Shown here: in pieces, positions 24,919 to 51,662 of the stretch
How the letters are laid out: every line of letters begins with the position of its first letter
How positions within the stretch are numbered: position 1 is the first letter of the stretch
Assembly (NCBI GenBank): GCA_005222975.1
Contig: NJBI01000007.1
Location: 1 to 64,000, forward strand
Direction of reading: 5' to 3'
Length of the DNA stretch: 64,000 nucleotides
DNA from: Promethearchaeota archaeon Loki_b31
GTDB lineage: Archaea; Asgardarchaeota; Lokiarchaeia; Sigyniarchaeales; SOKP01
Translations under genes and position numbers: made by a program
The notes under the pieces: generated by a model
Database searches by the model: none
What the model was told of the DNA's origin: nothing
The model's input: the letters and a program-made list of their open reading frames with translations, nothing else

Positions 24919-24959
24919 TCTAGATTTTCATTTAAAATCGTTAAGAAGGTGTTTTTTTT

Positions 24960-26021
24960 ACGAGTGAAATTATTCCGTCCTACGCTTATACATATATTAA
25001 AATCGATTATTTAAAACCATTAATAATTGATGATGACACTTTACTAAAACTTAAAAGAATCTACGATATTGATGATTTCATGGAATCTATTAGACTTTAT
25101 TATCCTAATTTAGATTTTAAAGAAAATACTATTGAAGATATTGAAGTTGCTCTTAAAAATAATTACATTAAGCTAATTGGTAAAATTTTACATTATTCAC
25201 CCCAAAACATGAGAATATTCTTAAGAAATTATCTCATGAAATTTGAAATACAAAATCTCAAACAAATAATCATCAGTTTAATTTTAGGAATTAATCAAGA
25301 AGAAAAAAGAAAACACATTAATTTTTTAGTTGAAGAATATTTAGATAACACGGAATTCATTGAAGATTTGCTTAAATTTACTTCTTTAGATGAAATACAA
25401 TTATTTCTTAAAAGAACTAAATACAATATAGCTATTAGAGAAGGTATTCTTTACTATAAGAAAAATAAAGAAATTTTTATTCTGGAAGCTTTTTTAGATC
25501 AATTATATTATAAGCAACTTATAATACAACTGGAAAATTTAAATAGAAAAGAGAAAACAATGATATCGTTGTTTGTGAAATACAAAACTGAAATTTATAA
25601 TATAAATGTGATTTATAGGGGAATAAAAAATAAAATTGAACCAAAATTATTATCTCAATTTCTTGTAAATAATTATTTATTCCTAGATGAAAGTAAATTA
25701 GAACATTTGTTAAATCTTGATAATATTGATGAATTTATATCAGTTATTAAAGAATATTTGAAGAATATTAAGGAAATAAAACCATTTTTTATCAAGCTAA
25801 AAATTAATCAAAAGCACTTAATTAGGTCAATTGAACAATTTTATATAACTTATTATTTTAAGAAATTTAAGATTAAAATTGACGACATTGATTTTTTCAC
25901 CATTTACAAAATTTTAGAAATACTTATAAAAAAAGAAAAAGAAATACGATTTGATATTTTACCAAAAGTAATTAAAATCCTTCACTATAAGTTTAAAGCA
26001 TTAAAAACGCAGAAATTTTAA
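24960..26021 (+). CDS. atpC: A/V-type ATPase subunit C (d); probable ACG start
   Basis: FEIQNLK, LEAFLDQLYY, EIYNINVIYRG motifs. The 40 codons upstream of ATG 25080 (SEIIPSYAYTYIKI..) resemble the subunit C N-terminal helix. Confidence 0.8.
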   Translation, partial: TSEIIPSYAYTYIKIDYLKPLIIDDDTLLKLKRIYDIDDFMESIRLYYPNLDFKENTIEDIEVALKNNYIKLIGKILHYSPQNMRIFLRNYLMKFEIQNLKQIIISLILGINQEEKRKHINFLVEEYLDNTEFIEDLLKFTSLDEIQLFLKRTKYNIAIREGILYYKKNKEIFILEAFLDQLYYKQLIIQLENLNRKEKTMISLFVKYKTEIYNINVIYRGIKNKIEPKLLSQFLVNNYLFLDESKLEHLLNLDNIDEFISVIKEYLKNIKEIKPFFIKLKINQKHLIRSIEQFYITYYFKKFKIKIDDIDFFTIYKILEILIKKEKEIRFDILPKVIKILHYKFKALKTQKF

Positions 26022-26073
26022 AGTTAATTATGAAATAAAATATTTAATATTAAATAATACGGGAGTAGTAATA

Positions 26074-26385
26074 ATGCCAATTTTTAAATGGGTTGAAGAA
26101 ATCGAAAATATTTATGAAAATTTGATTGAAAACGCCAAAAAAGAAAGTTTAGAAGACATTGAGAAACTAAACGCTTCACTTGAAAAGGATATAGAAAAAA
26201 AAAATCATAATAATCAGGAAATTATTAATTCTGCCTTAAAAACACTTTCAAAAGAAGTTAATGAAAAATCGTTAAAATTTGGAGAGTCAATATCGAAATT
26301 ATGTAACAAAATAGAAAAAAATTATTATGAAAATAAGGAAGGACTAATGAATTTAATATTTGAGAAATTAGGATTTGATTTTTAA
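26074..26385 (+). CDS. Putative A/V-type ATPase peripheral stalk subunit H/G
   Basis: 103-aa charged coiled coil (EEIENIYENLIENAKKES) within the ATPase operon. Confidence 0.6.
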   Translation: MPIFKWVEEIENIYENLIENAKKESLEDIEKLNASLEKDIEKKNHNNQEIINSALKTLSKEVNEKSLKFGESISKLCNKIEKNYYENKEGLMNLIFEKLGFDF

Positions 26386-26702
26386 TGCCAGATAAAAAAA
26401 TACATGTATTAGGCTACGACGAAATAGTTTTATTGTTTGGTCTTTTAGGTATTGAAGGAACGATAATTAAACATAATGAAGATTTTTTAAAAATTTTTAA
26501 AAATTTAATAAAAAAAACTTCTGTTGCTCTGATAATTATATACATGGATTTATCAGACGAAAATCTCGAATTTATAACAGATTTTAAAATAAATAATAGA
26601 ACGCCATTTGTATATTTATTACCAGATTTTTTTCAACAAGATATAAAGAATCAAGATAAGATATTCAACAAAATTCACGAATTAATAGAAGAAATTATAT
26701 AA
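26385..26702 (+). CDS. atpF: A/V-type ATPase subunit F
   Basis: KIHVLGYDEIVLLFGLLGIEG N-terminal motif; PFVYLLPD. Confidence 0.85.
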   Translation: MPDKKIHVLGYDEIVLLFGLLGIEGTIIKHNEDFLKIFKNLIKKTSVALIIIYMDLSDENLEFITDFKINNRTPFVYLLPDFFQQDIKNQDKIFNKIHELIEEII

Positions 26703-26736
26703 CAAGAGATGATCGGCCATTAGTGAAGGAAACGAC

Positions 26737-49694: not shown

Positions 49695-50156
49695 TTAATT
49701 GAATTGAAAAACATAAAATGAAATAATTTCCTCTGTTGTTAAAATAAGAATAATGCTTAATACATTAGCCACTATAATTCGAATGAAAACCTGGATCGAA
49801 ATTACAGCTAAAGTTATAAAAATCGAGTCTTTATGACCACTTTTGTAAAAAACCTTGATTAGCAGTGCGATAACTATAAAATTTATAATTAACACCACTA
49901 CCGAAATGATAACGTTAACAAATGCAATTAAGTTCAAATCTGCGCCAATAGAATTTAAATAATTCAATATCAAACCGATCAAAAAACTTAAAACAAAGAA
50001 CATAATTAAAAACCAGATCACATTAACTAATATTGCAGTTTTATATGGTTTACGATACTCGAATTTGTCTGTAAAAAATTTAGTTAAAAAAATACCTCCA
50101 AAAAGGATTATATAACCAAAAATAGCATTTATAGTAATAAAAATTATATCTGACAT
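49695..50156 (-). CDS. Hypothetical 4-TM membrane protein (tandem paralogue)
   Basis: Hydrophobic ORF; LVNVIW and IKVFY match the neighbour. Confidence 0.65.
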   Translation of the reverse strand: MSDIIFITINAIFGYIILFGGIFLTKFFTDKFEYRKPYKTAILVNVIWFLIMFFVLSFLIGLILNYLNSIGADLNLIAFVNVIISVVVLIINFIVIALLIKVFYKSGHKDSIFITLAVISIQVFIRIIVANVLSIILILTTEEIISFYVFQFN

Positions 50157-50330
50157 AAATTTATGAATGACTTGTATGAGTTATTTGAATTCTCTTCTTT
50201 AAGTAAATATAAAATCATTTATAAAGATTTCCTTAATCAAATCACGAAAAAAAACCCATTAAATTCCCCATAACCTTTTAATGAATTATTTTTGAGTTAT
50301 AATTCTTATTAAATAAAAATAGGCATACTT

Positions 50331-50400
50331 TTAATTATACATTAATACCAAGATCAAGTGTTTTATCTCGGATTTGATTGTCATCACTTATTTTGCTATT
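50331..50400 (-). repeat. 70-bp duplicate of the 3' end of the NDP-sugar pyrophosphorylase gene
   Basis: 65/70 identical to 51659-51728; encodes NSKISDDNQIRDKTLDLGINV* versus NSKISDDNQIRDKTLDLGTNI*. Confidence 0.92.
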
Positions 50401-50425
50401 AGTACCTTGAACAGATTACTATTTT

Positions 50426-51625
50426 TTATAACGATAAAATAATTCTATTTTGAGCTTTTAACATATCCTCCATAATTAGTTCCATAGCGTCTTTAATATC
50501 TGGCACACTATCTGGAATACTTCTCTTAGCATTGATACTTGCCATTAACACTTCGTTTAGTCCTCGTAGAATCATATCTGGGGAATACCAAGGTCTTTTA
50601 GAGGCCCACCATTGCTGACACGAATGGATCCCTCGATCTAATAAATTTCTCGCATTGTCAAAAATTGATTTTTTTTCATCATCCATGCTATTTCGATATT
50701 TATACGATAAATGGATTAAAGTCAGAGCATACATAAAAAACCGGTGTTGTTCAAAGTGAATTTCATTATTAGGATCAAACCAAAGAGGAAAAGGAACATC
50801 ATGAGCTAAATCATAAGGCATAGTTGACCAAGAAGATGCTCGTGGATTCTGTATATTGATTTTAGGGAACTTATCTATGATTTCTGAAACATTACATAAC
50901 TTAACATCATTGCGATGAGGAAGAGCATCAAAAAGGGGTATTAAAAAGTTTTTTATAGCATGTTTTACATGGTGTCCAAAAGTTTCTCCATCCATTGCTA
51001 GAATAACATAATAATCCTCTGAAGTATGTTTGTAATATAATCGATTTATAAACTCATCAACAGTATTAATTTTATCAAATGCACAATCAATAGAGATATA
51101 ATCATCTCTAAATATTAAATTTAAATTGTTAGGATGCTGTGATATAAAAGTTGTAGGAAATTCGGGTAAAATATTTGCTATACCACTCATAATGATCCAA
51201 TCATAACCCATTTCTTCTACAACCGAAAATACCTCTTCAGAAACAGCCATTTCAGGAGGAAAAAAACCTCTCGGTTTAAATAATTCTCCAAAAAATTTTT
51301 GATTCGTTTCATAATTTAATTCAATTTGTCGTCTAATTTCTGGCGATGGAATAAGCGGTAATAGAGGATGGAATTTTCCAGAACCAGTAAATTCTACTTG
51401 ACCTCTAGATGCAAGTGTTGTTAGCTCTTCTATGATATCCATATATCCAAAATCATTTAATTGTTCAGTCAAAGTACCATTAATATTCAAAGTTATTTTC
51501 GCATAGGGATGATTTCTTAAAGCTTCAATTATTGGTCTGTAAGATTCATTTGCAATTTGTTTGATTACAAAGGGTATTTGCACTGGTGGTTGATAAATAT
51601 GAAATAAAAACGCAAAATAAATAAT
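50426..51625 (-). CDS. GH57 family glycoside hydrolase; probable ATT start
   Basis: ESYRP, GFFPPEMA (nucleophile E), AMDGETFGHH (acid/base D), SSW. The GH57 region-1 motif FHIYQP lies upstream of the GTG at 51583. Confidence 0.9.
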   Translation of the reverse strand: MIYFAFLFHIYQPPVQIPFVIKQIANESYRPIIEALRNHPYAKITLNINGTLTEQLNDFGYMDIIEELTTLASRGQVEFTGSGKFHPLLPLIPSPEIRRQIELNYETNQKFFGELFKPRGFFPPEMAVSEEVFSVVEEMGYDWIIMSGIANILPEFPTTFISQHPNNLNLIFRDDYISIDCAFDKINTVDEFINRLYYKHTSEDYYVILAMDGETFGHHVKHAIKNFLIPLFDALPHRNDVKLCNVSEIIDKFPKINIQNPRASSWSTMPYDLAHDVPFPLWFDPNNEIHFEQHRFFMYALTLIHLSYKYRNSMDDEKKSIFDNARNLLDRGIHSCQQWWASKRPWYSPDMILRGLNEVLMASINAKRSIPDSVPDIKDAMELIMEDMLKAQNRIILSL

Positions 51626-51662
51626 AAATTAATCTCCCTTTTTTTATTTTTATTTAGTTTAA

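Follow-up and report, generated by a model that had tools for sequence, protein, structure and literature searches.

Probable near-cognate start codons behind Shine-Dalgarno motifs in the genus of the Lokiarchaeon Loki_b31, among them that of the fidelity-factor gene aIF1

Can an archaeal gene begin at ACG or ATT? This question is raised by the first 64,000 nucleotides (nt) of contig NJBI01000007.1 of the uncultured Promethearchaeota archaeon Loki_b31 (hereafter the window), where genes of the ATP synthase and a few others show such a near-cognate codon behind a Shine-Dalgarno (SD) motif. Reviews of archaea give AUG, GUG and UUG as the only start codons and describe SD motifs as rare in Lokiarchaea (PMC7531240, PMC12993045). 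A first-pass annotation of the window had proposed that start-codon selection is relaxed in this lineage; the codons, SD motifs, spacings and in-frame stops which it listed are all present in the sequence. Judging from conservation among relatives, we hold it very likely that near-cognate initiation is real in the genus of Loki_b31. Our complete reading, to which we give a probability of about 0.78, is that SD-anchored near-cognate starts would operate under a permissive stringency which the initiation factor aIF1 regulates through its own start. The source genome of the window (G000; 3.5 Mb, GC 31.5%, 92% complete) was compared with a congener (G018, 1.58 Mb compared; median protein identity about 66% over its first 1.17 Mb) and with a genome of another family (G038, 0.41 Mb compared). 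Checks of start sites against relatives took in part of the genes of the window. The 16S rRNA is unassembled in G000, and the anti-SD sequence was assumed for all SD matches.

The operon of the A-type ATP synthase, K-C-H-F-E-A-B-D-I (24442..33612, forward strand, as are all its genes below), provides an internal comparison set: atpK, H, F, A, B and I start with ATG in the window and with canonical codons in nearly every locus of the relatives. The gene atpC (subunit C, PF01992; 24960..26021), identified by its Pfam match and by the conservation of its start column, begins with ACG, 8 nt after the SD-like motif AAGGTG (24946..24951). An in-frame TAA is found at 24942-24944, and the earliest canonical codon is the ATG at 25080, 40 codons past the ACG; the Pfam match starts at residue 21, which is upstream of this first ATG (residue 41). 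In orthologues which are 50-95% identical, the start column holds ACG in 29 of 37 loci, ATG or TTG in or adjoining the column in 7, and ATA in 1, the start being ATG in family f2. The upstream GGTG(A) is conserved 6-9 nt before the start in the relatives while the spacer is free to vary. Slippage in a T-run, starting from the GTG within the SD, was considered for atpC and rejected, as the run is absent from the relatives. The ATG starts at 10342 and 26074 in the window also have an SD spacing of 8 nt.

The subunit D gene atpD (PF01813; 30670..31308) was placed by its Pfam match and by alignment of the column of the initiator methionine (the Met column). It begins with ATT, 9 nt after GAGGTG (30655..30660), a motif lying within the final codons of atpB. 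The stop of atpB, TAA at 30661-30663, is in frame; it rules out the GTG inside the SD as a start in G000. The first ATG (30709) comes 13 codons on, and the KPTKTNL sequence precedes it. Among 21 other members of the genus the Met column holds ATT in 12, ATA in 3, GCG in 2, TTA in 1 and ATG in 3, the codon moving between ATT, ATA and ATG across the gene tree; the other families have ATG or GTG. A case not listed by the first-pass annotation is atpE (subunit E; 26719..27441), assigned by operon position and homology, without a Pfam match. It most likely begins at the ATT 26719: an in-frame TGA lies at 26710-26712, the GTG at 26737 falls within the conserved I-S-E N-terminus, and the start column holds ATT, ATA or ATC in 27 of 30 loci. 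In 2 loci, L407 among them, this column is ATG, and G006 has an ATG two codons upstream of it. Outside the genus, atpK of G025 and G032 (L076 and L077, family f2) starts with ACG, so that near-cognate starts occur in family f2 too; atpK of G038 starts with ATG.

The GCG of atpD belongs to one branch of five genes (L007, L008, L394, L395, L397; 78-94% identical), grouped in the tree with support 94/88. It is found 6 nt past the in-frame stop and 9 nt past GAGGTG, with the first canonical codon 12-37 codons downstream. In L394 a second stop leaves just AAA and GCG ahead of the conserved SFREF. Internal GCG codons are retained at 6% between G000 and G018. The simplest reading is that GCG, two mismatches away from ATG, is likely to be the start in this clade; a nearby ATT or AAG may possibly serve in some of its members.

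On the reverse strand, hgdD (4278..5636; D-type 2-hydroxyacyl-CoA dehydratase, PF06050) begins with ACG according to its Met column. No canonical codon occurs until the ATG at 5588, 16 codons past the ACG 5636. The Met column holds ACG in 11 genomes (75-100% identity) and, in the identical column, ATG in 10 others. Internal ACG codons are retained at 5.4% only between G000 and G018, and fourfold sites are 75% A/T. The ACG kept at atpC and hgdD therefore suggests selection against reversion to ATG, an argument that stays qualitative since the relatives are kin and not independent. Translational coupling is ruled out as a general cause, because hgdD is first in its unit and atpC starts 41 nt after atpK. 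The window holds a second HgdD-type gene (11522-12877), which starts with ATG and is 56% identical to the first; the two form a natural pair for a comparison of relative expression.

Two further sites had been listed, and they fared less well. The 421-residue gene at 52960..54225 (reverse strand, no Pfam match) has an ATT at 54225, 8 nt after AGGTG. In a subclade of 11 genomes (76-100% identity) the column holds ATT in 10 and ATC in 1, with GGTGT or GGGTGT 6-8 nt upstream; in other genomes an ATG or GTG lies 2-9 codons further upstream, or a TTG 15 codons further. The ATT is open to some doubt, as G000 also has an ATG 5 codons after it. The ATT start is thus likely in this subclade only, and the case is a moderate one. 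The other site is that of a gene of family GH57 (PF03065; 50426..51625, reverse strand), with a possible ATT start at 51625. Here gggag lies 8 nt before the ATT, a TAA stands at 51631, and the FHIYQP motif is encoded ahead of the first GTG, which comes 14 codons later. The start is readable in 19 relatives, and in every one of them it is an ATG or GTG lying one codon upstream, so that among them the ATT is not a conserved near-cognate start; this is the outcome which the first-pass annotation had itself set down as contrary to its proposal. Two independent cold-seep sequencing runs (X4, X7) gave near-identical strains with about 11 extra bases, ATG included, whereas the contig from the run that is probably the source is identical to the window at this site, which rules out an assembly error. 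The ancestral ATG appears to have been lost in a deletion of about 11 nt. Since relatives and near-identical strains keep ATG or GTG, the ATT of GH57 is a recent private state and not a trait of the lineage: the old SD may by chance have come to serve a new weak start 8 nt away, or the gene may be at the beginning of its loss.

How frequent are such starts in the genome? After removal of shadow open reading frames and of genes of the selenocysteine (Sec) type, 690 pairs between G000 and G018 had conserved N-termini. (A first pairwise screen had given 17%, a figure rejected as an artefact of antisense shadow frames and of Sec-type TGA genes.) Curation of the 690 pairs by hand gave 27-35 genes of G000 whose start is most likely non-canonical, that is 4-5%; about 13 are exactly opposite a canonical codon of the partner, about 14 are non-canonical in both genomes, and at most 8 are unclear. 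This percentage is probably a lower bound, because a chance upstream GTG or TTG masks a case. For the whole genome we estimate that about 100-150 genes may be concerned. Aligning orthologous N-termini and counting the codon at the Met position, the check advocated by the first-pass annotation, was also done on a pre-defined automatic subset, namely the pairs in which one gene lacks a canonical codon before the conserved N-terminus (n=36). The codon opposite the partner's ATG, GTG or TTG is ATT, ATA, ATC or ACG in 19 of 36 pairs (background 20%, P=1.6e-5), and the codon opposite an ATG is near-cognate in 14 of 22 (P=1.2e-5). The 19 cases comprise 13 ATT, 3 ATA, 2 ATC and 1 ACG. An SD match of at least 4 nt precedes 84% of near-cognate starts versus 36% of ATG starts (p=4e-5). 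In a tally anchored on SD motifs and independent of orthologues, the spacing peaks at 4-9 nt, and ATG, TTG and GTG are enriched, ATA and ACG weakly, ATT not; this tally is uninformative on near-cognates, as isoleucine codons are too common. Taken together, and as in the SD-directed near-cognate initiation of infC, pcnB and ccpN, near-cognate sites have no ATG, GTG or TTG before the conserved N-terminus and, hgdD excepted, an SD at normal spacing; conservation of the Met position between species holds for atpC, atpD, atpE, hgdD and aIF1 and, within its subclade, for the gene at 54225. The tolerance put forward for the lineage is thus borne out.

Several small-GTPase or P-loop-like genes are found among the ATT and ATA starts of G000 (contigs C75, C78, C58, C3). 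HdrA- or MvhD-like genes of contigs C61 and C23 have in-frame TGA codons, either conserved or aligned with cysteine, which probably encode selenocysteine.

We now turn to the factor which controls start-codon fidelity. In G000 the aIF1 gene (contig C88) has no ATG, GTG or TTG between an in-frame TGA and the zinc-knuckle, and an ATT stands 9 nt past AGGTTGTGA. In 66 close homologues this codon is ATT in 63, ATC in 3 and ATG in 0, and the SD-like 9-mer is unchanged in 65 of the 66. Over the 15 genomes of the genus in which it was checked, aIF1 is thus a fidelity-factor gene with a conserved suboptimal start, of the type known from infC and eIF1. At the equivalent position, other families of Lokiarchaeia have ATG, TTG, GTG or ATA. 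A canonical start is absent from aIF1 in 3 of the 11 other Asgard families sampled (f11, f17, f6) and present in the remaining 8; the apparent starts are ATA behind AGGAGG in f11 and f17, and CTG behind GGAAGGTG in f6 (L358, L361-L363, L370, L373). In 68 aIF1 neighbourhoods, treated with an automatic column picker which made several mis-picks, the neighbouring genes mostly start with plain ATG, one family having ATG in 24 and ATT in 20.

The motif AGGTTGTGA (L051:1800-1812, minus strand) holds an in-frame TTG-TGA start-stop, and its two bases which mismatch the anti-SD are invariant as well. Readthrough of this TTG-TGA, or a Sec codon there, was considered as an alternative start of aIF1. It is ruled out by one homologue having TAG in place of the TTG, and is also disfavoured by the families which have ATG or TTG at the position equivalent to the ATT.

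The first-pass annotation had looked to the fidelity residues of the initiation factors for a cause. The aIF1 protein scores above the Pfam cut-off and its CxxC, RRKWGR loop and QGDH are intact; aIF1A is intact too, with a long basic N-terminal tail and a GTG start. Hence loss or degeneration of either factor is ruled out. The initiator tRNA has a CAU anticodon, A1:U72 and three G-C pairs; its anticodon stem, CAGGG/CCCTG, resembles that of the yeast initiator. No second initiator-like tRNA (three-G-C stem, isoleucine or threonine anticodon, tRNA context) was found in the 92%-complete genome, and the single initiator with CAU rules out an altered initiator or an altered code. The relaxed starts do not come from loss of a factor or change of an anticodon, since aIF1, aIF1A and the initiator tRNA are intact. 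About 30 extra nt, probably a non-canonical intron, interrupt the T-loop region of the initiator tRNA-Met gene, which lies on the minus strand of contig C55 (about 13130-13240, counted from the start of the reverse complement); a relaxed intron scan with aragorn gave mostly noise. In aIF1A (L329-L356), six residues are inserted behind the PW(D/E)W motif in families f1-f3, the basic N-terminal tail is longer in f1, and six genomes of the genus have two aIF1A matches.

The following mechanism would account for these observations. SD motifs are known to pre-position the archaeal initiation complex (PMC6237735, PMC4705826). In the genus of Loki_b31, the duplex between SD and anti-SD would position the 30S complex with AUU, AUA, AUC or ACG in the P site, where the ordinary initiator Met-tRNA with its CAU anticodon would tolerate a one-base mismatch. 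A full-length protein beginning with methionine would result, at reduced efficiency, the weak codon being offset by a good SD. Translation of aIF1 from its AUU behind the fixed, imperfect AGGTTGTGA would create a negative feedback on stringency similar to that of infC, and this feedback, which we regard as probable, would keep the stringency of the whole cell low enough for SD-led weak starts to function. Purifying selection would maintain the weak starts of atpC (ACG), atpE, atpD, hgdD (ACG) and aIF1, each of which would damp its own gene. Further weak starts, such as that of GH57, would be recent losses of ATG, possibly tolerated by a permissive system.

Several points weigh against this interpretation. 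The codon of isoleucine which neighbours the start of aIF1 is ATT in 59 of 66 homologues, so that the invariance of the start is only modestly higher; the argument drawn from aIF1 rests for this reason on the absence of canonical codons. In aIF1, aIF1A and the initiator tRNA we found no residue change which explains a higher tolerance, and a motif scan of G000 did not retrieve aIF2 alpha, aIF2 gamma or uS9. The excess of SD matches (84% versus 36%) comes from a comparison which partly favours easily seen cases, and the ACG of hgdD, whose SD match is weak (below 4 nt), departs from the pattern. The relatives entering all conservation counts are kin and not independent samples. Finally, the same pairwise method gave 0-1 near-cognate cases in 127 pairs for G038 against 3-5 in 127 for G000, a difference which is not significant (p=0.12): it suggests that the method is not simply noisy and leaves a difference between lineages unproven.

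Could the weak starts be neutral? With loose fidelity and AT-biased mutation, ATG could drift to ATT or ATA near an SD, with no selected function and no feedback of aIF1. The order ATT > ATA > ATC does parallel the A/T bias, many cases occur in just one of the two genomes compared, the state of GH57 comes from a recent deletion, and atpD wanders among ATT, ATA and ATG on its tree. Some of the cases across the genome are probably due to drift. As a general explanation it is unlikely, and it is disfavoured for atpC and aIF1, because it leaves unexplained the persistence of ACG (29 of 37 atpC loci have ACG, although a C-to-T return to ATG would be favoured), the contrast within the operon (K, H, F, A, B and I canonical; C, E and D not) and the 0 of 66 aIF1 genes with ATG. 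The first-pass annotation had suggested another function, that weak starts chiefly set the stoichiometry of the subunits. In A-type ATPases C, D, F and I are present in one copy, E and H in two, and A, B and K in three or more. It is true that no subunit of at least three copies (A, B, K) has a weak start in the genus, while C, D and E have one in about 30 loci. But the single-copy F and I, as well as H, the two-copy partner of E, use ATG; weak starts occur in 3 of 6 low-copy versus 0 of 3 high-copy subunits (p=0.24); the most abundant subunit, K, starts with ACG in two genomes of family f2; and most near-cognate genes lie outside such complexes (small GTPases, hydrolases). Damping of particular subunits is plausible, and could be a local use of an aIF1-regulated system. 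Copy number alone is insufficient for the pattern, and we think it rather unlikely that it is the chief cause.

Two other explanations have far less to offer. Start codons are edited from C to U in plant organelles, and such editing would turn ACG into AUG in the mRNA; the exchange of ACG and ATG in the exact same column of hgdD and atpC, with a common ACG-AGY context, would fit. However, AUG is unreachable by this route from ATT, ATA, ATC and GCG, the majority of cases, and archaeal mRNAs are not known to undergo C-to-U editing of start codons, which makes the idea very improbable. The true starts might also be downstream ATG, GTG or TTG codons, as picked by the gene calls of the databases, or the genes might be decaying or mis-assembled. 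Such an account is plausible only for GH57, whose private loss of ATG may mark an early pseudogene. For the remainder we find the idea scarcely credible: the upstream residues are conserved down to homologues of 30-50% identity which start there with ATG, dozens of genomes have the essential atpC, atpD and aIF1 in intact form, and mis-assembly is contradicted by the source-run contig at GH57 and by the absence of the T-run from the relatives of atpC. We therefore keep the reading of SD-anchored near-cognate starts under self-regulated aIF1 stringency.

With about 4-5% of main starts most likely near-cognate, core ATP-synthase genes included, the genus exceeds the picture of archaea confined to AUG, GUG and UUG. 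The database forms of AtpD (199 residues, versus 212 from the ATT) and of HgdD (mostly 436, versus 452 from the ACG) are truncated and, together with the tubulin precedent described below, they indicate that Asgard proteins used for work on structure and evolution may need their N-termini called again. As to the surroundings of the operon, the synteny with relatives is broken at about 18500-24300 of the window, the matches being scattered over several places in G017; this suggests that the segment before the ATP synthase genes is inserted or mobile.

The nearest published precedent found in Asgard archaea is a single ATT start, that of the tubulin gene atubA of Kariarchaeaceae, inferred behind a ribosome-binding site where the database protein is truncated (PMC13394414). 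It is a remark on one gene in a lineage of Heimdallarchaeia, and makes no claim on the genome or on aIF1. In the literature searched, which left subscription papers mostly aside, no report of genome-wide near-cognate starts in Asgard archaea or of a non-AUG start of aIF1 was found. About 30% of the putative alternative sites of Haloferax volcanii are near-cognate; those sites, discounted in the study because they might be false positives, do not serve as main starts of conserved genes (PMC7261190). The aIF1 of Sulfolobus blocks the binding of AUU in vitro (PMC4705826).

In bacteria, SD-led AUU and AUA starts of Staphylococcus aureus give about 10% of the expression of AUG, and its infC starts with AUA (PMC13009471). 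The starts of its cvfC1 (AUU), ccpN (AUA) and citZ (AUA) resemble ours in that a strong SD picks a weak codon, with conservation between species and reduced expression (PMC13009471). They differ in number, being four sites as compared with an estimated 100-150 genes here, where ACG is common and the factors are the archaeal aIF1, aIF1A and aIF2. For a start with two mismatches, such as the GCG of atpD, the sigR gene of Streptomyces, which begins with GTC (PMC5472188), is a precedent.

The first-pass annotation had seen a bearing on the evolution of near-cognate initiation in eukaryotes. As proposed, this link is conjectural: eukaryotes have no SD, on which the starts of Loki_b31 depend, and aIF1 has a canonical start in eight of the 11 other Asgard families sampled. 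The near-cognate cases of G000 include no CUG, a codon which eukaryotes favour; ACG, AUU, AUA and AUC are used on both sides. The closer likeness concerns eIF1, homologous to aIF1 and also provided with a handicapped start: it is autoregulated by the poor context of its AUG (Ivanov et al. 2010, as cited in PMC6237735). The handicap of eIF1 lies in an AUG in poor context met by scanning, while in aIF1 the codon itself is non-AUG and positioned by an SD. The likeness to bacterial infC is of another kind. IF3 of Escherichia coli is autoregulated through the AUU start of infC (Butler et al. 1987, as cited in PMC4705826), so that there, as in aIF1, the gene of the fidelity factor begins at AUU behind an SD. 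IF3 is however unrelated to aIF1, which has the eIF1/SUI1 fold, and the resemblance would for this reason be convergent or an inherited logic; moreover the feedback is here a proposal, and the habit extends to about 4-5% of genes instead of a handful. If the non-AUG start of aIF1 is true, it extends to archaea the autocontrol of fidelity factors known for IF3 and eIF1. We tentatively propose, as a possibility rather less than even, a regulon of weak starts in which about one gene in 20-25 begins at AUU, AUA, AUC or ACG (GCG in one clade) under an aIF1 rheostat, the handicapped aIF1 start which recurs in Asgard families being the counterpart, and possibly the forerunner, of the autoregulation of eIF1.

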